Below are positions 12,390 to 20,817 of a stretch of DNA of 64,000 bases, one piece after another. The notes under the pieces were generated by a model that was not told the DNA's origin, did not search any database, and worked only from the letters and a program-made list of their open reading frames with translations. A program made the translations under genes and the position numbers. The number at the start of each line of letters is the position of its first letter. Position 1 is the first letter of the stretch. This stretch comes from Pyrinomonadaceae bacterium. Lineage in GTDB: Bacteria; Acidobacteriota; Blastocatellia; Pyrinomonadales; Pyrinomonadaceae. The DNA is taken from positions 110,336-174,335 of the forward strand of contig JBHELZ010000004.1 in NCBI GenBank assembly GCA_046262835.1, read 5' to 3'.

Positions 12390-13577
12390 CTATGCGTGAT
12401 GGTGGTGATGTTCGTGGTGATGATGATGCTCGGATCCATCCATCATGCGCAGCATCTCCGGCCCGCCAGTCTTAAAGAACCGCACCAGCAACAATCCGGC
12501 AATTGCCAGAAAAACAATATTGAGAACGGTCGTGTAATTAAGAGTGATCGATGCTTCCACTACCCGCGCCGCGCGATCGGTTGGGATCAGCCCCAGCCAG
12601 TCGAAAAGAAATTCAACGATAAGCGCCGCTGCCACCATCGCGGCATAGAAAGTAGCGAACAGGAAAATACTGACCTTCGCTCCATAGTACTTGCGATAGA
12701 TGTTTAGAATCGGCAGGACGATGAGATCGGCGAAGATAAAAGCGATCACTCCCCCGAAACTTATGCCGCCATTCCACAGCACCGCGGCCAGCGGAACGTT
12801 CCCTATTGAACACACGAACGAAAGAATTGCGACCAGCGGGCCAACCAGCGGCCCCCAGAACTTTGCGAAGACCGGGTGCGAAGTGAAAAAGAAGCTCTGC
12901 CAGAACGCATGTGGCACCGTTGCACCCAGGAGGCCCGCCAGTAACAATCCGATCGCGATGTCTTTCCATACCGCATGCCAGTCCATCACGAAATAATGAC
13001 TAATGGCGGTGCGGCCTTTACCTGAGGAAATTCTTTTTAATAGCGGGCCCCCGGTGACGGCCATATCCATCTCAGCGTGACCTTCCATTATTCCCTTCAC
13101 GCCCTTGTCAGCTTGCTCGCGAGCGGCTGCCACCAGTCGCGGCGTGAGAAAAATCTTAAAGAGCAGGGCCAGGATTATGATCATGAGCGGGCCGCCGATA
13201 AATTCAGCGAGCGCGAATTGCCAACCCATCAGCACAATCATGATGACGCCAAGTTCGATAACCAGATTTGTCGACGCGAATTGAAAGGCGATGGCCGCGG
13301 TGAAATTTGCGCCTTTGCGAAAAATCGACCGCGCGAGTGCGACGGCAGCATAAGAACAAGACGAGGATGCCGCCCCCAAAGCGCCGGCAATTGCGATCGA
13401 CTTCGGAGAATCGTCAGGAAGAAGCTTCGTCATCTCCCGTTTAGTCACGACTGCCTGCACGACTGCTGAGAGCCCGAAACCAAGAATCAAGGCCCATAGG
13501 ATCTCCCAGAACATGGCAAACGCCATCGACAGAGATTCCCAAATGGGATGTCCAATAGTCATCAAATTAGCCTGCAT
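12390..13577 (-). CDS. polytopic permease (ArsP/DUF318-like) with poly-His C-terminal tail
   Basis: 395 aa with multiple TM helices. The conserved-looking SSSCSYAAV segment recalls the predicted-permease PF03773 family (from memory). C-terminus GSEHHHHHEHHHHHA. RBS aggaag lies upstream of the ATG at 13577. Confidence 0.7.
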   Translation of the reverse strand: MQANLMTIGHPIWESLSMAFAMFWEILWALILGFGLSAVVQAVVTKREMTKLLPDDSPKSIAIAGALGAASSSCSYAAVALARSIFRKGANFTAAIAFQFASTNLVIELGVIMIVLMGWQFALAEFIGGPLMIIILALLFKIFLTPRLVAAAREQADKGVKGIMEGHAEMDMAVTGGPLLKRISSGKGRTAISHYFVMDWHAVWKDIAIGLLLAGLLGATVPHAFWQSFFFTSHPVFAKFWGPLVGPLVAILSFVCSIGNVPLAAVLWNGGISFGGVIAFIFADLIVLPILNIYRKYYGAKVSIFLFATFYAAMVAAALIVEFLFDWLGLIPTDRAARVVEASITLNYTTVLNIVFLAIAGLLLVRFFKTGGPEMLRMMDGSEHHHHHEHHHHHA

Positions 13578-13601: not shown

Positions 13602-14393
13602 TCATTGCACTACGATCGCGCCACGAAACATGTTCATCCCACAAGTGAACTTGAAGCGACCGGGTCTTTTGGGAGTAATTTCAACCAGGACCGGGGTGTT
13701 AAGAGGCAATGCACGAATTATCTTGTAAGCCGGAATAAGAATTTCAGTGCCACAGCTATCGGCGGTATTGCGGATAAAGGTGAGCCGCGCGGGCACCCCT
13801 TTTCGTAATTTGATCGCTGCGGGTCGATAACCTTCGGAATTCACCAGAATTGTTCGTTTCTGCATTTCAGGTGTTTTGACTGGTCGATCGCGGACTTGAG
13901 CTCCTGGCGCCGCATGTGAAAGCAGCGGTAGAACCTTTTCATCAAATTCATCTTTGTACATGACGCCTTCAATCACATCGCGCACCTTGCCTTGCCCGTC
14001 GATGATCACCGTTATGGGCAATGTTTCAGTTGAAGAAAACAGCAGCTTCGTCTCTTTAGTTCCCAGCGCAATTGGATAACTGATTCTCGCCCGCCGCGCG
14101 AACTGACGAACTCGAGAAAGTTTTTCCGGAGGATATGTGATGCCAACGAATTGTAATCCCCGACGACTATAGTCACGCTGCAACTTGATCAGTTCCGGCA
14201 GCTCCTGGCGACACGGCGGGCACCACGTCGCCCAGAAATTCAATAGCACGACTTTGCCCTTGAAATCGTTAAGATCAAAGATGCGACCATTAAGGGTCTT
14301 GAGGCGCAAGGCGGGTGCGGAACGCGAAGTCTGCGCTGAACCGGCGACCGAAGATAAAAAGACAATAGCGCTGATTGCGATTGTTCGAATCAT
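13602..14393 (-). CDS. periplasmic TlpA-like thiol:disulfide oxidoreductase fused to a cupredoxin-like domain
   Basis: Signal peptide MIRTIAISAIVFLSSVAGSAQ. Thioredoxin motif FWATWCPPCRQE. C-terminal ~90 aa ...ADSCGTEILIPAY...PGRFKFTCGMNMFRGAIVV match the cupredoxin_1 pattern (pG.y.f.Cgm..M.G.i.V). Confidence 0.75.
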   Translation of the reverse strand: MIRTIAISAIVFLSSVAGSAQTSRSAPALRLKTLNGRIFDLNDFKGKVVLLNFWATWCPPCRQELPELIKLQRDYSRRGLQFVGITYPPEKLSRVRQFARRARISYPIALGTKETKLLFSSTETLPITVIIDGQGKVRDVIEGVMYKDEFDEKVLPLLSHAAPGAQVRDRPVKTPEMQKRTILVNSEGYRPAAIKLRKGVPARLTFIRNTADSCGTEILIPAYKIIRALPLNTPVLVEITPKRPGRFKFTCGMNMFRGAIVVQ

Positions 14394-14395
14394 TC

Positions 14396-15853
14396 TTAGA
14401 ATAAGTACCTCGCCCCGAGGAGAAGGTTGCCATCCGTGCGCAAGATGAGCGGCCCCGTATTCCGCATTAATGGAAACTGATAGCTACCTTCGATCACGAA
14501 TCGGGGTCCGGCCGCATATTGCAGTCCCGGGGCCAAATAGTATTCGGTGGCCCGGCTTCCAGCGACTGGAAGCCCATTCAAGCGGCCCATACCTCGATGA
14601 ACGAACATCGTTTCAAGAATCAAAAACAGTTCGCCTCCAGGCTTGAGCCGGTCCTTTGGCAGCACATATTCCAAATCGGTGCTCAGCCGTTGTTCATGCC
14701 CGATCCGAAAGCCGTCTCGTTCGGTCCGAAAGATTACTTCGGCGTTTCCGCCAAAAATGACTCGGCCTCCGGCCTGGGAAAACGCGAGATCAAAATGGGG
14801 AGTCAAGCCCCCGTTTATCGGTGTCAGCTGTTGCCTTACGAAGGCAGGCGCATTGATTTGTGTTTGCGCGGGCGCCGTCTTTTTGCCGGTTGGCAGTTCC
14901 ATGCCTACTCGGAAGGCCGCCTGTCTGTCTCCGTAGGTCTTCACCTTTCTAAAGAATCGATACTTGGCCCAGCCGGTCAGATTTCCGATACCAGAGCCTG
15001 AACCCGAGCTGATCTTGTTGTCGTAAGCCGTGCGAGAGAACGGCAGTTCAACTTCCACCTGAAGACGTGGAGATGGAGTGTACGAAACGCTCAAATCGAA
15101 AGCCTGGCGATCGACTTCCAGAGATCCGAGATGCTGCTTGATAAGGTAGAGACGCGGAGTGACCGCCCCTCCCTTGTAAACGGTCAGTCCCGGAGAGGTC
15201 ACCCGGATTGGCGCCAGCGGTTTGCCTGGATCAGGATTGATTACGTCATCGGCAGGTGATGCAAGCGAAGAACGGGCAAAACTTACGTTGACGAAGTTCG
15301 GGAATGAGAGCCGGCGATAGCTTTCAGCACTTGATGCACTTGCCTTGCGCGCCGGCGAAATGGTTTCATGCGCGGCTGGTCCGGAGCCGATAGTCTTCCA
15401 ATCCCCGCTGATCTCGACGCTCACGCGTGGATTGGCTCCAGCCATAGCCTGGTCCATGTTAGCTCCTCCCAGCGCAAAGCGCTGTCCTGACGACTCGTTA
15501 ACCAGGATCCAGCCCGTGTCATCTTTCACAACAGTGCCGGAAACGGTGATGTCCGCCGCGTCGAGCGCATAACCCGCCTTCTTCAGCGTTTCTTTCAACG
15601 CCGCGAAGGATACGGGCTTATCAGGCTTGGGCGTGAAGATACCTAGCCCTTTTTGAATATCCGTTACCTGAATCTCTTTGAGTTTCGGTGCGTAGTCTAG
15701 ACGGCTCACGGCCTTCTGAATGTTGTACACTCAATTGCCGCACAAGTAGCCGGCGATATGCATCTGCACGCGCTTTACCTGCGCCTTTGAACTCGAAAGC
15801 ATTCCGAACAAGAGCACCAGCCCAAAGCCGATCCGAAAAAGTTTGCCTTGCAT
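14396..15853 (-). CDS. outer-membrane beta-barrel protein with N-terminal HMA domain carrying a C-x-x-U motif (candidate selenoprotein, UGA at 15731-15733)
   Basis: The ORF track starts at 15730, just after a TGA. Reading through the TGA in frame gives ATG 15853 and MQGKLFRIGFGLVLLFGMLSSSKAQ (signal) VKRVQMHIAGYLCGN-U-VYNIQKAVSRL..., which is the GMxCxxC HMA motif with UGA at the second Cys. 1458 nt is a multiple of 3. RBS gaaaggacag lies upstream. The C-terminus ends ...GARYLF, typical of OM barrels. Confidence 0.6.
15699..15717 (-). promoter_or_regulatory. candidate bacterial SECIS-like hairpin downstream of UGA 15731-15733
   Basis: mRNA AGAAGGC-CGUGA-GCCGUCU, hand-folded as 6 bp plus one A.G mismatch. 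The apical loop contains GU. It starts 13 nt after the UGA. Confidence 0.3.
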
Positions 15854-16137: not shown

Positions 16138-16407
16138 CTACTGCTTGTTCTTACCGTCTTTCTTTTCATGCTTCATCTGACATGAATCTCCGCAACAACA
16201 CGATCCGTCTTTGGAACATGAACCGTCTTTGCAGCAGTCCTTGTCTTTGCAGCAAGCCATGTCTTTGTCCTTGCAACAGTCCTTTGTCGCGCAGTATGAA
16301 TCCTTCTTGTCTTTGTCAGCTTGCGGATTCTGGGCCATTGCCGAGGCGGACGCGGCGAGCGCCATTCCGCAAATAAGGGTAATTACAAACGACTTAACTT
16401 CTTTCAT
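16138..16407 (-). CDS. secreted Cys-rich (metallothionein-like) small protein
   Basis: 89 aa. Signal peptide MKEVKSFVITLICGMALAASASAMA, then a 64-aa mature part with 12 Cys in CC/CCC clusters separated by KD repeats (CCKDKDMACCKDKDCCKDGSCSKDGSCCCGDSC). RBS aggaga lies 7 nt upstream. Confidence 0.6.
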   Translation of the reverse strand: MKEVKSFVITLICGMALAASASAMAQNPQADKDKKDSYCATKDCCKDKDMACCKDKDCCKDGSCSKDGSCCCGDSCQMKHEKKDGKNKQ

Positions 16408-16515: not shown

Positions 16516-17016
16516 CTAGATCAGAAAGACACAAACGCGGAGGTAGGTTCGATTTTGATTGGGCAAGCGTAGCGGATAAGCGGTTGAAACCGCCTCTGCC
16601 TGCGAGAGACTGGGTACTAACGAATCTGTTAGAGAGCAGGCGAAATTATCTTCGTCGTTGGATTGCGAGCGTGACGCGACGAGGTATGAGCCACCTGTCA
16701 GCGGGCAACAATTGCTCGCGCCCGAAGGCGCGGGCCCTTCCGGCAAAGCAACCTGCTCAAAATCTGGTCGCGATTCCGAATTCGATTGACTGAGCTTTGC
16801 TGAAGAATGATGCGCTTTGCAGCACGCATGACTTCCCATGGGGGCGGCTGCGCTGCTGAAACTGCTAATGAGGGCTTGCGGGCTTGCGAGGTCGGCATGA
16901 TTCATTGCACCGTGCGCATAGCTGACAATCATGCAGCCCGTGCCTGCGCACCAGAGCATCAGAGTGAACGCCAGCAACCTGCGAACTCTCTGGATAAATT
17001 GAACGCCGACTTTCAT
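16516..17016 (-). CDS. hypothetical membrane-anchored protein with CC/His motifs
   Basis: 166 aa. N-terminal TM LLAFTLMLWCAGTGCMIVSY. Motifs HACCKAHH and NCCPLTGG. No family recognised. Confidence 0.45.
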   Translation of the reverse strand: MKVGVQFIQRVRRLLAFTLMLWCAGTGCMIVSYAHGAMNHADLASPQALISSFSSAAAPMGSHACCKAHHSSAKLSQSNSESRPDFEQVALPEGPAPSGASNCCPLTGGSYLVASRSQSNDEDNFACSLTDSLVPSLSQAEAVSTAYPLRLPNQNRTYLRVCVFLI

Positions 17017-17183: not shown

Positions 17184-17924
17184 CTATGGGCTCGGCTTCT
17201 TCACGTGCGGGGGCTCGTACTGTTCGCCATATTCCGGGTACTCGATGGTCACAAATTCTCCCGGCCGAGTGTTCTGACTTAATAACCCGAGCGCATCCAG
17301 TAAAACTTTTTCTTGCAGGCCCCGCATGCCCGGACGCCCCAAACTGTTTCCAATTTTGAATCCCTTCGGATAAAGCGCGCGTGGCGGCCGCATCTGGGCG
17401 GAAACTTCGGGACTGACGGTGACCAGGACGGTCGGGATGCCTTTCATTTCGATTTCACGTTGAACCGCGACGACCGTGCGGTGGCAAACGTTGGGTCAAC
17501 CACCGGTGAGCACAACAGCATCTGCGCGCGAACCCCGATCGATCTCATTCGCGATCTCGCGCGCCGTGCCTTCATACATCGCCTTGAGTTGCATGGTGTA
17601 ACCCATGTAGCCGATATGCTTTTTAGCGATGCCGCCGATTATGCCGTCACTTTCCAGGGCCCGGAGAACATCGATCGGAAACACGACATTAATGTCTTCG
17701 TCCGCGTCCGCGTGATCGTAGTGATGATGCGTCACCATCAATTGAGCGGAATCAACGTCAGACGGGATTTCGCGATAAGTCAGATCGCCAAGCTCGTCGG
17801 CAATATTAAAGGGATCCTGATCTTTCAAGTGCACCCCACCCGCTGTGACAATCGCAATGGTGCTTTTAGAAAGCTCACGATCGAATGGAGTGAAAGGAAC
17901 ACATTTGCGTGAAAGTGTGGTCAT
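17184..17924 (-). CDS. glycine/sarcosine/betaine/D-proline reductase family selenoprotein B-like protein (PrdB-sized), UGA at 17496-17498
   Basis: ORFs 17496..17924 and 17184..17447 are in the same frame (741 nt = 247 codons) and are joined by one TGA: ...RADAVVLTGG-U-PNVCHRTVVAVQREIEMKGIPTVLVT.... This continuity across the stop is typical of the GrdB/PrdB selenoprotein family. Confidence 0.6.
17464..17482 (-). promoter_or_regulatory. candidate SECIS-like hairpin downstream of UGA 17496-17498
   Basis: mRNA ACCGC-ACGGUCGUC-GCGGU gives a 5-bp stem and a 9-nt loop containing GGUC. It starts 13 nt after the UGA. Hand-folded. Confidence 0.3.
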
Positions 17925-18487: not shown

Positions 18488-18952
18488 TCACAGTTTCCTT
18501 AAGACTTCGAAAAGATCTTCATTGTCCGGCTGATCGGAAATGTTGTGGATGTCTTTGTAAGCGATTTTGCCGTCTTTACCGACAATGAAGATCGCCCGCT
18601 CAGAGATCCCATCGTTAGCTCGATAAGCTCCATAGGCTTTGGCTACTTCACCTTTGGGATGGAAGTCGCTGAGAAGATCGTAGGAAAGTCCACCGAGGCT
18701 TTTGGCCCAGGCGGTGTTACAGGGAACGCTGTCAACTGAAATGCCCAGAACCTGAGCATGATAGCCCGAGAAGCGGTCGATGTCGGCCTCGTACGCGGGC
18801 ATCTGCGCCGTTCAGACCGGTGTCCAGGCGAGGGGATAAAACGCGATGACCACATTCTTTTGACCGCGGAAATCCGAGAGCCGCACCTTCTTATCTTTCT
18901 CCAGGTGACTCTTCAACTCGAAATCCGGCGCCATATCTCCAACTTCAGGCAT
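18488..18952 (-). CDS. peroxiredoxin (AhpE/BCP-like) with selenocysteine at the peroxidatic position, UGA at 18812-18814
   Basis: The ORF track shows only the C-terminal 104 aa. Extending in frame through the TGA gives [61 protein letters not shown].... The UGA sits exactly where Prx proteins have the catalytic Cys (compare FYPLDFTFVCPTE in the neighbouring 2-Cys Prx). 465 nt is a multiple of 3. RBS ggagga lies upstream of the ATG at 18952. Confidence 0.75.
18779..18803 (-). promoter_or_regulatory. candidate SECIS-like hairpin downstream of UGA 18812-18814
   Basis: mRNA GAUGCC-CGCGUACGA-GGC(CGA)CAUC gives 7 bp with a 3-nt bulge and a loop containing GU. It starts 8 nt after the UGA. Hand-folded and weak. 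Confidence 0.25.
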
Positions 18953-19185
18953 GGTGAGTTCCTCCTATTAATGACAAATGAATTGTTTGGCTTTCCGCAC
19001 CAGATTAACGCGTTTGCAAAGGTCAATCAAGCGCTTCCCGGGCTTCATTACCAGACTGCGCGGTCGTAGTGCCCTTGTGATGTGGTAGGCGCATGTTGCC
19101 GGGGGTCTTTCCAGCCGGGACGCGGTGCGACTCTCAAGTTGCAGTTGCCGCGGCCCTTCGGGCTTGACACTCAATTTAGAATTAT

Positions 19186-19195
19186 TGTAATTACA
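19186..19195. promoter_or_regulatory. AT-rich palindrome, possible Fur/PerR-family operator
   Basis: TGTAATTACA is a perfect 10-bp palindrome within ttagaattattgtaattacattc, ending 3 nt before the PerR-like ATG and lying in the divergent region shared with the Sec-peroxiredoxin. Confidence 0.3.
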
Positions 19196-19198
19196 TTC

Positions 19199-19621
19199 AT
19201 GGCCCGGAACGTCAGAGAGCCGCCAGAGATCCCGTTGACGCGTCAACGCAGGGTTGTGCTTGAGGTGATAAACGCGGAGAAGGATCATCCTACCGCGGCC
19301 GAGGTGTTCGATTCCGCGCGCCGGAAGATGCCCGGAATCAGCTTTGCCACCGTTTATAACTCGCTCAGGTATCTGAAAGACTCAGGCCTGGTGCGCGAGA
19401 TTGCGTTCGGCAGCGGCGCCAGCCGCTACGACCGCGAAACCGACCGGCACGATCATGCGCTATGTTCCGAATGCGGAAAGCTGGTTGATTTCGATCTACC
19501 CGGCACGGTTGCCCTGACTCGTTCGGCCGCGCGGGCGTCTAAATTCAAAGCACAGTCGGTCCACTTAACGCTGGTGGGTCTTTGCCCGAAATGCCGCCAC
19601 AGTAAGCCGGGTTCGTCTTAA
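19199..19621 (+). CDS. Fur family transcriptional regulator (PerR-like)
   Basis: Start taken at the internal ATG 19199 (MARNVREPPEIPLTRQRRVVLEVI...). Winged-helix segment ATVYNSLRYLKDSGLV, HDHALCSECGKLVDF and CPKC (two CxxC pairs). Sits between two peroxiredoxin genes. Confidence 0.8.
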   Translation: MARNVREPPEIPLTRQRRVVLEVINAEKDHPTAAEVFDSARRKMPGISFATVYNSLRYLKDSGLVREIAFGSGASRYDRETDRHDHALCSECGKLVDFDLPGTVALTRSAARASKFKAQSVHLTLVGLCPKCRHSKPGSS

Positions 19622-19682: not shown

Positions 19683-20252
19683 ATGTCAGCAGCAGTAGCA
19701 ACAGCTTATGAATCAGCCCAGGTCGGACAGCCCGCACCTGATTTTGAAGTTCCATCAACCAAGAATATTGAAAAACTGAATGAACCGGTAAAGCTTTCGG
19801 ATTATCGAGGCAGGTGGGTGGTTCTGCTTTTTTACCCATTGGACTTTACCTTCGTTTGTCCCACTGAACTTACCACCTTCAGCGATCGCTATGCCGATTT
19901 CGAAGGTGTCGGGGCCGAAGTCATTGGAGTCTCGACTGACTCAGCGTTTTCGCATCGCGCGTGGTTGCAAACGCCACGTGACAAAGGCGGCGTCGAAGGG
20001 CTGCGTTTTCCACTCGGCGCGGACATTACGAAAAAAATGTCGAAGGATTATGGTGTGCTGATCGAGGATCGCGGAATCGCACTGCGCGGCCTGTTCATTA
20101 TTGATCCGGAAGGCGTGCTGCGCTACAAAGTCATCCACGATCTGAACATTGGCCGGTCGGCGGAAGAAACGTTGCGCGTGATTCAGGCGTTACAGACCGG
20201 TGGTCTTTGCCAGGCTGAATGGCGGCCGGGCCAGGAAACCATCAAGGCGTAA
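19683..20252 (+). CDS. typical 2-Cys peroxiredoxin (AhpC/Prx1 subfamily)
   Basis: 189 aa with FYPLDFTFVCPTEL and a C-terminal resolving Cys (GGLCQAEW). Strong RBS aggagga. Confidence 0.9.
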   Translation: MSAAVATAYESAQVGQPAPDFEVPSTKNIEKLNEPVKLSDYRGRWVVLLFYPLDFTFVCPTELTTFSDRYADFEGVGAEVIGVSTDSAFSHRAWLQTPRDKGGVEGLRFPLGADITKKMSKDYGVLIEDRGIALRGLFIIDPEGVLRYKVIHDLNIGRSAEETLRVIQALQTGGLCQAEWRPGQETIKA

Positions 20253-20340: not shown

Positions 20341-20817
20341 ATGCCGATGAGAATTGGGACCCTCATGCCTCCGCTGACAGGCGCAACTGAATGGCTCGCC
20401 GGCTCGGCGGAAGAGGCTTTGAAAGAAGCGGCCGGCCGGCCCCTGTTGATCCATTTCTGGTCTATCAGCTGCGGAATGTGCAAAGACAACTTGCCGCGCG
20501 TCGCTGAATGGCGAGAAAAATATCGGGACACAGGGTTCCGGGTAATCGCGATTCATATGCCGCGCTATCCCGGAGACGCGAACATCGACGCGGTGCGCGA
20601 AGCTGCCGCGAAATACGGAATCATTGAGCCGCTGGCAATCGACAACGAGCACAAGCTGCGCGACGCTTTTCAAAACGAGCACGGCTATGTCCCTGCTTAC
20701 TATTTATTCGACGAGCAGCACAAATTGAAAAGCTTTGCCGCCGGGGAATACGGGGTGAAGGTGATGGAGCCGGCGATTCAGCGCTTAATAAGCGGCGCGA
20801 GTGTGGCGCAAGTTTGA
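20341..20817 (+). CDS. thioredoxin-like (TlpA/redoxin family) protein
   Basis: 158 aa with LIHFWSISCGMCKDNLP (CxxC active site in a thioredoxin-fold context). Confidence 0.7.
   Translation: MPMRIGTLMPPLTGATEWLAGSAEEALKEAAGRPLLIHFWSISCGMCKDNLPRVAEWREKYRDTGFRVIAIHMPRYPGDANIDAVREAAAKYGIIEPLAIDNEHKLRDAFQNEHGYVPAYYLFDEQHKLKSFAAGEYGVKVMEPAIQRLISGASVAQV

Follow-up and report, generated by a model that had tools for sequence, protein, structure and literature searches.

A candidate selenoprotein family of Pyrinomonadaceae that joins an exported HMA domain with a CxxU site to an outer-membrane channel

In the present study, we analysed a 64,000-nucleotide stretch of DNA from a Pyrinomonadaceae bacterium (assembly GCA_046262835.1, contig JBHELZ010000004.1, positions 110,336 to 174,335; the whole stretch is called the window) and, within it, a minus-strand gene at 14396..15853 whose reading frame is crossed by a TGA. 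When this TGA is read as a sense codon the gene is complete, with 485 codons including the one UGA and a terminal TAA, and its product consists of a signal peptide, an HMA domain with a CxxU site, an OB-like domain, a linker and a 12-stranded outer-membrane barrel. On comparative grounds, the UGA is very probably decoded as selenocysteine (Sec). The combined reading, that of a Sec-containing, exported HMA metal site which is tethered to an outer-membrane channel and binds a soft metal, is the one we favour, with a probability of roughly 0.75.

The frame opens at an ATG at 15853, with AAGGA 9 nt upstream. The start codon and signal peptide (residues 1-24, MQGKLFRIGFGLVLLFGMLSSSKA; 15782..15853, minus strand) run into QVKRVQMHIAGYLCGN and then into the TGA at 15733-15731 in one frame, and the residues directly before the TGA are ...VQMHIAGYLCGN. 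After the TGA the frame continues with GTG 15730 and VYNIQKAVSRL to the C-terminus ...GARYLF and the stop TAA at 14398-14396. The hydrophobic core of the signal peptide, IGFGLVLLFGM, has an 11-residue Kyte-Doolittle mean of 2.4, whereas the first 60 residues after the TGA peak at 0.7. In all species this part begins with a K/R-rich n-region and goes on with a hydrophobic core, and its sequence varies. The UGA itself (15731..15733, minus strand) would encode Sec as residue 41, at the second ligand position of a CxxC-type motif; the TGA is conserved, and Cys stands at this position in the relatives P0247, P0296 and P0386. The original prediction, made from the letters of this DNA, had proposed a 41-codon in-frame N-terminal extension with ribosome-binding site, ATG and signal peptide, and a stop codon that falls on the second ligand Cys of an HMA domain. 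Each element of the extension was found in place on the minus strand, and the position of the stop codon was borne out as well, as the Pfam HMA match spans the TGA and C38 and U41 align with the CxxC of the Cys forms.

The conservation of the interrupted frame was examined by a scan with one genome per species, which gave 37 loci, all from Pyrinomonadaceae/Blastocatellia metagenome-assembled genomes (MAGs), at 62-85 % identity. Wherever the 5' end of the gene is included (36/36 loci), an in-frame ATG, a variable signal peptide, the near-invariant QVKRVQMHIAGYLCGN, the TGA and VYNIQKAV follow one another. The TGA is also kept in three further relatives (L039, L040 and L041), two of them, L040 and L041, at only 42-50 % identity; the most divergent one with DNA, L040 at 42 %, reads GYLCGF-TGA-VYNIKKAV. 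In total, 38 of 38 related loci with 42-85 % identity have retained the ATG, the signal peptide and the TGA in frame. Neither TAA nor TAG occurs at this position in any of the 39 DNA sequences. Furthermore, the invariant Val, Gly and Leu columns upstream of the TGA are written with 4-5 different codons, so that the frame there is under protein-level purifying selection.

In the protein databases this continuity is hidden. All of the 120 best relatives begin at V/M-YNIQKAV or at the next GTG (VSRL), which indicates that gene callers cut them at the UGA codon. A search with the junction peptide returned 577 matches; among the best 120 of these 577, none spans the junction and 112 are 40-aa mini-ORFs ending in ...YLCGN (109 of them in ...IAGYLCGN). 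An exhaustive search of 1.84 billion cluster representatives yielded 269 relatives. Outside the Cys clade, 105 of the 107 relatives in the follow-up search (45-53 % identity) are truncated at the U position, and when both sets of relatives are pooled, again with the Cys clade excluded, 225 of 227 are truncated at or just after the UGA. Hundreds of public records (P0129-P0240 and the like) carry the 40-codon leader as a separate 'hypothetical protein' and the remainder as a 'transporter'. This split annotation is a systematic mis-annotation of the HMA-barrel family.

Cys-containing orthologues, which the original prediction had suggested looking for, were found. In P0247 (473 aa, full architecture, LCSMC; GGHLCSMCSFNIRK) a Cys takes the place of the stop and the frame is continuous, and P0296 (YLCNSCATSIGK) and P0386 (HLCSMCVYNIGK) are likewise uninterrupted through the UGA site. 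All Cys forms fall in a single tight clade of ~13 clusters, and the clade P0390-P0401 is also of the CxxC type, with its second Cys in the UGA column.

The usual bacterial selenocysteine insertion sequence (bSECIS) is a stem-loop directly 3' of the UGA, with a G/U in the apical loop roughly 16-37 nt away (bSECISearch). A hairpin of this kind, AGAAGGC-CGUGA-GCCGUCU, was located at 15699..15717 on the minus strand, at +14..+32 after the UGA. Its spacer is 13 nt, and its loop CGUGA begins at +21 and places GU at +22/+23. The earlier suggestion of a hairpin with GU in the loop 13 nt past the TGA therefore held, at 15717-15699. The RNAalifold consensus, AGA.GGC-CGUGA-GCC.UCU, has 6 pairs around an A·G mismatch and a 5-nt loop. 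In addition, this region has the lowest synonymous-site entropy of the gene: among 33 species, the ten lowest 7-codon windows all lie between the C-G-N-UGA and the V-S-R codons (UGA to +33), with 0.21-0.38 bits vs a gene median of 1.42 (254 windows). Even at 42 % protein identity the 11-nt apical core GGCCGUGAGCC has not changed, and AAGAAGGCCGUGAGCCGUCU is unaltered in L040, the relative at that distance. In L041 one base of the lower stem is changed (CGA for CGU), by which the A19–U33 pair is broken. An Rfam scan of the window at gathering thresholds matched no family, a result that says nothing on bacterial SECIS elements.

Two further in-frame TGAs within 3 kb had also been pointed out, and both were confirmed, one at 17498-17496 in a PrdB/GrdB-like gene and one at 18814-18812 in a peroxiredoxin (Prx) gene. 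Both genes belong to known selenoprotein families and have the UGA at canonical Sec sites. They also have comparably placed hairpins, with the loop GGUC and GU at +22 in the PrdB-like gene, and the loop CGUA and GU at +18 in the Prx gene. The Sec trait is documented in Acidobacteria (PMC1794560 Table 2; PMC12013277 Table 2). Overall, the proposed Sec recoding at the second ligand of the HMA CxxC is supported by a strict TGA with an open and constrained frame on both sides, by Cys homologues, by an invariant hairpin at bSECIS distance, by the lack of re-initiation signals and by the adjoining genes of known selenoproteins.

The domain architecture was derived from the readthrough product, with U written as C for the Pfam run, and from AlphaFold2 (AF2) models compared by Foldseek. 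The HMA domain (βαββαβ) covers residues 25-96 (15566..15781, minus strand) and has the metal-site motif G-Y-L-C38-G-N-U41; C38 and U41 align with the CxxC of the ATP7B and CopA domains, besides that of the Cys forms. In AF2 models of the Cys homologues the secondary structure is E25-33, H38-49, E61-64, E69-72, H82-91 and E95-, at a pLDDT of 84-97, and the CxxC falls where β1 meets α1. The N-terminal 186 residues, modelled on their own (pLDDT 90.8), matched the HMA domain of ZiaA (2ldi, TMt 0.71, rmsd 2.6 Å) and also CopA (2rml). This domain is followed by a small OB-fold-like β-barrel, residues 97-166 (15356..15565, minus strand; AF2 pLDDT about 95), without conserved Cys, His or Met, for which the Foldseek similarity to the OB folds of SSB/PriB is marginal (E about 2e-3, at least 1.8e-3; TMt about 0.5). 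The linker, residues 167-216 (15206..15355, minus strand), is of low complexity, poorly conserved and predicted to be disordered, with a pLDDT < 50 in the homologue and a length that varies in the alignment. The full-length model was made with a full-length Cys homologue and a 41-sequence family alignment (mean pLDDT 82.9), and it has a β-rich domain at about 95-166, a disordered linker at 170-214 and a barrel at 219-472.

The last part of the gene (14399..15205, minus strand) encodes the pre-barrel segment APIRVTSPGLTVYKGG and a 12-stranded barrel of the COG4313/Phenol_MetA_deg type ending in ...RYLF, with an aromatic last residue. Pfam PF13557 (Phenol_MetA_deg) matched residues 268-460 above its cut-off (24.4 bits vs 22). 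By Foldseek the barrel matched 4rl8, the COG4313 channel Pput2725, with E = 4e-10 and TMt 0.75-0.76, and FapF (5o65/5o68) with TMt 0.6-0.74. The C-terminal outer-membrane barrel that had been proposed from the ...ARYLF ending is thereby backed by both the PF13557 match and the fold match to 4rl8 (TM 0.75). The pre-barrel segment before strand 1, APIRxTSPGLxVYxGG, is highly conserved and was modelled with a confidence of just 49-65. The 12-stranded barrel of Pput2725 is entered from the periplasm by the first ~14 residues of that protein (PMC4493636). Since the HMA and OB-like modules lie N-terminal to APIRVTSPGLTVYKGG, whose Pput2725 equivalent enters from the periplasm, we infer that they are periplasmic; the HMA domain is most likely tethered under the channel and not exposed at the surface.

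The most conserved neighbour of the gene is a redoxin. In the window, a co-operonic, secreted TlpA/ResA-like thiol:disulfide oxidoreductase (WCPPC), fused to a C-terminal Cupredoxin_1-like domain, was identified by Pfam and NCBIfam at 13602..14393 on the minus strand, its ATG 2 nt past the stop of the barrel gene. By tblastn 25/37 loci, and by ORF clustering 26, have a redoxin (WCxPC) gene immediately after the HMA-barrel gene. It is also found directly 3' of the Cys homologue (10-nt gap) and of L041; with the Cys form included, it follows directly in 28 of the 40 relatives examined. The spacing of the two genes in many loci is a few to ~20 nt, or they overlap by 4 nt. The redoxin-cupredoxin fusion occurs in L001 and L036 as well; the partner of most relatives has just the redoxin part, of ~165 aa.

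On the basis of these data, we propose the following mechanism. The ribosome would start at ATG 15853 and insert Sec at the UGA at 15733-15731 rather than terminate. The hairpin at +14..+32 (loop CGUGA) would direct this insertion, presumably bound by SelB carrying Sec-tRNA(Sec). The mature protein would be composed of a periplasmic HMA domain (C38-G-N-U41), an OB-like β-domain, a flexible linker and a channel of the COG4313/FapF type, with the N-terminal side in the periplasm. There, the Cys-thiolate/Sec-selenolate pair would bind a soft metal ion, for which Cu(I) is the most likely candidate and Hg(II), Ag(I) and Cd(II) are possible; the analogy to TlpA and the Met-rich or cupredoxin neighbours speak for Cu(I), the MerT and MerR neighbours for Hg(II). 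Such a capture by C38 and U41 is plausible. The bound ion may be held or handed over at the mouth of the tethered channel, or may gate the channel, in the direction of either efflux or uptake. The adjoining secreted TlpA-like reductase would re-reduce the easily oxidised selenenylsulfide and so keep the site competent for metal binding.

Several observations weigh against this reading. With regard to the domain, the Pfam HMA (PF00403) match at residues 33-95, which is the one that spans the TGA, scores 21.1 bits (E = 4.3e-4) and so falls slightly short of the gathering score, 24.8 bits; the motif GYLCGNU deviates from the canonical GMTCxxC; the HMA matches in a PDB sequence search with the whole protein were non-significant (E >= 0.1); and the Foldseek E-values for the HMA matches are marginal, about 5e-3. 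With regard to the hairpin, it is small (-4.8 kcal/mol), with a z-score no different from shuffled sequence, and RNAalifold found covariation in 0/6 of its pairs, because the sequence of the stem does not vary. The sole Cys form with DNA (L038) still holds 5/6 of the hairpin pairs, so the Cys-form DNA is no negative control for the hairpin, and part of the conservation could reflect the K-A-V-S-R-L peptide. With regard to the machinery, tRNA-Sec was not found by ARAGORN in the 64-kb window or in 38 loci (L001-L038), nor were selA, selB and selD found in the window or the loci; in Pfam scans of 20 further window ORFs of a size compatible with SelA, SelB or SelD none was identified, and only a housekeeping SerRS matched. 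Finally, the characterised COG4313 channels are tied to hydrophobic substrates and not to metals (PMC4493636).

The main functional rival accepts the same Sec product and takes the C-x-x-U as a redox centre, in which electrons would pass from a cytoplasmic reductant to the TlpA-like redoxin and on to the CxxU. The HMA-like domain would then act on a substrate that goes through the channel or docks there, either by reducing it or by forming a mixed selenenylsulfide. TlpA is known from Bradyrhizobium, where this secreted TlpA-family reductase serves the exported, Cys-based copper chaperone ScoI, of thioredoxin fold, by keeping its Cys reduced; a redoxin partner is therefore no argument against metal binding. 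The redox proposal draws on the conserved TlpA-like gene (25-26 loci, and beside the Cys form), on the sub-threshold HMA score and atypical GYLCGNU motif, and on a small thioredoxin near the L040 gene. It also draws on the fact that most CxxU/UxxC selenoproteins are redox proteins (PMC13188914). Against it, the fold is ferredoxin-like as in HMA domains and not thioredoxin-like, the cysteines are placed exactly at the β1-α1 metal-binding loop, and the genes around have a metal theme (a GMHCGGC HMA protein, a MerT-HMA fusion, MerR, a YHS/TRASH protein, a His-tailed permease). We consider a redox centre unlikely, and soft-metal binding the better account of the site.

Much less probable is that the TGA is a true stop, which separates a 40-residue exported peptide from a 444-residue protein initiated on its own at GTG 15730. 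All gene callers annotate the locus in this way, a GTG stands directly after the TGA in 32/37 loci, and no Sec machinery was seen in the window. However, a Shine-Dalgarno-like sequence precedes the codon after the TGA in 0/37 loci, compared with 28/37 for the upstream ATG; 3 loci have GTC as that codon and 1 has ATC, with GTC in L040 too; and in L025 none of ATG, GTG or TTG occurs within 40 codons. The 444-residue product would moreover be an outer-membrane barrel without a signal peptide, carrying an HMA fold minus β1 and the metal loop. The absence of TAA and TAG from the site, together with the continuous frame of the Cys homologues, speaks against termination too, and we give this explanation very little credence.

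Readthrough without Sec, by near-cognate insertion of Trp or Cys or by a lineage-wide reassignment of UGA, is of similarly slight probability. The database entry P0376 translates the codon as W, and the hairpin is weak for a SECIS. On the other side, the homologues have a metal- or redox-ligand Cys at the position, which is the signature of Sec, and two genes of classical selenoprotein families with UGA at known Sec positions lie within 3 kb. P0376 was rejected as a Trp variant, as its DNA has TGA and the W comes from the translation table of the source pipeline. A genome-wide reassignment was rejected as well, since TGA serves as an ordinary stop for 15/34 window ORFs of at least 250 aa. The last alternative is that the gene is a pseudogene, or that sequencing or assembly of the MAG introduced an error. 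It has nothing more in its favour than the internal stop. The same TGA recurs independently in the genomes of 36 species, and hundreds of contigs from separate metagenome studies carry it too, with strong purifying selection on either side of it; this effectively refutes the alternative.

Beyond the redoxin, the window holds an ArsP_1-type permease (12390..13577, minus strand; Pfam ArsP_1 227 bits), 24 nt downstream of the redoxin gene and with the poly-His tail HHHHHEHHHHH. It is only distantly related to the SO_0444 Cu/Zn efflux family of NCBIfam (52.7 bits vs a cut-off of 300) and to the SaoE transporter family, both of which include selenoprotein members. The permease is probably in the same operon in this genome only; in other loci it is not kept beside the HMA-barrel gene. 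Directly upstream of the HMA-barrel gene, 15 loci have a ~127-aa secreted "DCC...CC" protein with no family match, and a 166-aa cousin of it was found in 6 loci, including the window (16516-17016, minus strand). Members of this paired-Cys exported family (HACCK...NCCPL or DCC...CC), without Pfam or NCBIfam match, are also present at L022 2264-2764, L029 2411-2911, L033 2675-3217, L013 8316-8753 and L025 4725-5210, with shorter relatives such as L026 5361-5744. The system may thus have this paired-Cys protein as a third conserved component.

Next to the HMA-barrel gene, 7 loci encode a secreted HMA protein of the canonical kind (GMHCGGC). Five loci (L029, L013, L022, L025 and L033) encode a Met/His-repeat protein with a barrel-like C-terminus; the one at L029 3570-5486 has 638 aa, with long MPGMNMPGHQMP / SPTPNPQASPHQMDM repeats followed by the barrel-like part, and without a Pfam match, and it may be an unrecognised PcoB-like outer-membrane copper protein. 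At L013 12510-13103, about 5 kb downstream of the HMA-barrel gene, a MerT transporter is fused to a C-terminal HMA domain. The neighbours in L040 are a MerR-family regulator, the small thioredoxin and a YHS/TRASH protein. At L040 821-1296 an 83-aa Thioredoxin_3 ORF is followed by a 47-aa ORF, and the two might together form a further UGA-interrupted gene, as Thioredoxin_3 (PF13192) selenoproteins have been catalogued. In the window itself, an 89-aa secreted protein at 16138-16407 (minus strand), made up mostly of Cys/Lys/Asp repeats (CCKDKD..., CCCGDSC) and without Pfam or NCBIfam match, looks like a periplasmic, metallothionein-like metal sponge.

The two neighbouring genes with a UGA are of established families. 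The PrdB/GrdB-like 'selenoprotein B' gene (17184-17924, minus strand; TGA 17496-17498; TGG-U-xxC) matches TIGR01918 with 70.4 bits, above the cut-off; it appears as an orphan, with no obvious partners of proline or glycine reductase nearby. The PrxU-like peroxiredoxin gene (18488-18952, minus strand; TGA 18812-18814 in frame) has its UGA at the peroxidatic position, PLAWTPV-U. When the Prx homologue in L028 was probed for a conserved TGA, no match was obtained. Beside the Prx gene lie Cys peroxiredoxins at 19683-20252 and 20341-20817 and a Fur-family regulator at 19082-19621, a cluster that suggests an oxidative-stress island. As far as gene content can tell, the theme of the neighbourhood is the handling of soft metals together with the maintenance of periplasmic thiol redox state.

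A functional analogue is offered by the copper-resistance proteins PcoB/CopB, in which an outer-membrane β-barrel is preceded by a periplasmic metal-binding N-terminal region. In PcoB this region is a disordered Met/His-rich segment, the barrel is of family PF05275, and there is neither an HMA fold nor Sec; PF05275 was not matched by the HMA-barrel protein. The HMA metallochaperones MerP and CopZ share the βαββαβ fold and the ligand pair at the β1-α1 loop, and MerP is also periplasmic; unlike the protein described here, which is channel-tethered with GYLCGNU and a putative Sec, they are free-standing and have GMTCxxC with two Cys. The likeness to TlpA-ScoI lies in the conserved adjacency of the reductase gene, and a functional pairing in our case would follow from gene order only. 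The barrel resembles COG4313 and FapF in its 12 strands, in the conserved segment before strand 1 (compare the lumen-occluding N-terminus of Pput2725) and, as in FapF, in an extra periplasmic N-terminal module. In contrast, the known channels of this type are implicated in the uptake of hydrophobic molecules or the secretion of amyloid and have no metal-binding domain, whereas an HMA and an OB-like domain are present here, and the identity to them is only 10-15 %.

Sec in HMA domains is not itself new, since UxxC in a P-type ATPase and UxxU in NF041115 have been catalogued (PMC13188914 Table 1). These families (NF041115; TIGR01525 for the ATPase) are alike in that Sec replaces a ligand Cys in the HMA CxxC loop, and the comparative evidence is comparable. 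However, theirs are cytoplasmic with Sec in the first or both positions, and the present one is exported, has its putative Sec in the second position (CxxU) and is fused to an OB-like domain and a barrel; furthermore, Sec would be the dominant state in the HMA-barrel family and no rare variant. The catalogued outer-membrane selenoproteins are the FCYXU TonB-dependent receptor and the GSU2204 barrel (PMC13188914 Table 1). The former is likewise a predicted outer-membrane selenoprotein with CxxU (PMC13188914 Table 1), but it is 22-stranded and has no HMA domain, and its model fails to match the HMA-barrel protein. For the readthrough product, NCBIfam 20.0 gave 0 families at E <= 0.01; no row of the 2026 prokaryotic selenoprotein catalogue (PMC13188914 Table 1) corresponds to an HMA(CxxU)-barrel protein; and full-text literature searches gave no description of this architecture. 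The claim of the original prediction that the architecture belongs to no described family is upheld on these grounds, with the qualification that Sec in HMA domains is known elsewhere. We file it as a new selenoprotein family whose members would work in the manner of an HMA metallochaperone attached to a COG4313-type channel, and not as a categorically new system.

The family comprises roughly 2,000 clusters at 90 % identity, all from Pyrinomonadaceae/Blastocatellia, and its gene is also present on two complete chromosomes, OY970193.1 and OY969111.1. If our reading is correct, the mis-annotation affects thousands of database entries, which record a 40-aa 'hypothetical protein' and a 'transporter' shortened at its N-terminus, while the real product is an exported selenoprotein of an undescribed modular design, HMA(CxxU) + OB-like + COG4313-type channel. 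Its hairpin, very small and invariant in sequence, would be a compact natural SECIS candidate from an under-studied phylum. Sec would be the rule here and Cys the rare exception, which is unusual and would be informative on why Sec is selected at metal sites. The most far-reaching form of the proposal, which we put forward tentatively and at somewhat less than even odds, is an unrecognised, soil-abundant selenoprotein family in which the second ligand of an exported HMA site is essentially always Sec and not Cys, with the site tethered to a channel and served by a dedicated TlpA-type reductase, so that the whole would be a new metal gate or efflux device of the outer membrane centred on a Cys-Sec selenolate site. 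If true, the family offers a concrete and testable system for soft-metal handling at the outer membrane of non-proteobacterial diderms, which is poorly understood. It would also mean that selenium is invested in metal homeostasis by aerobic Acidobacteria of the soil, and that selenium availability is linked to metal tolerance in a dominant soil phylum.

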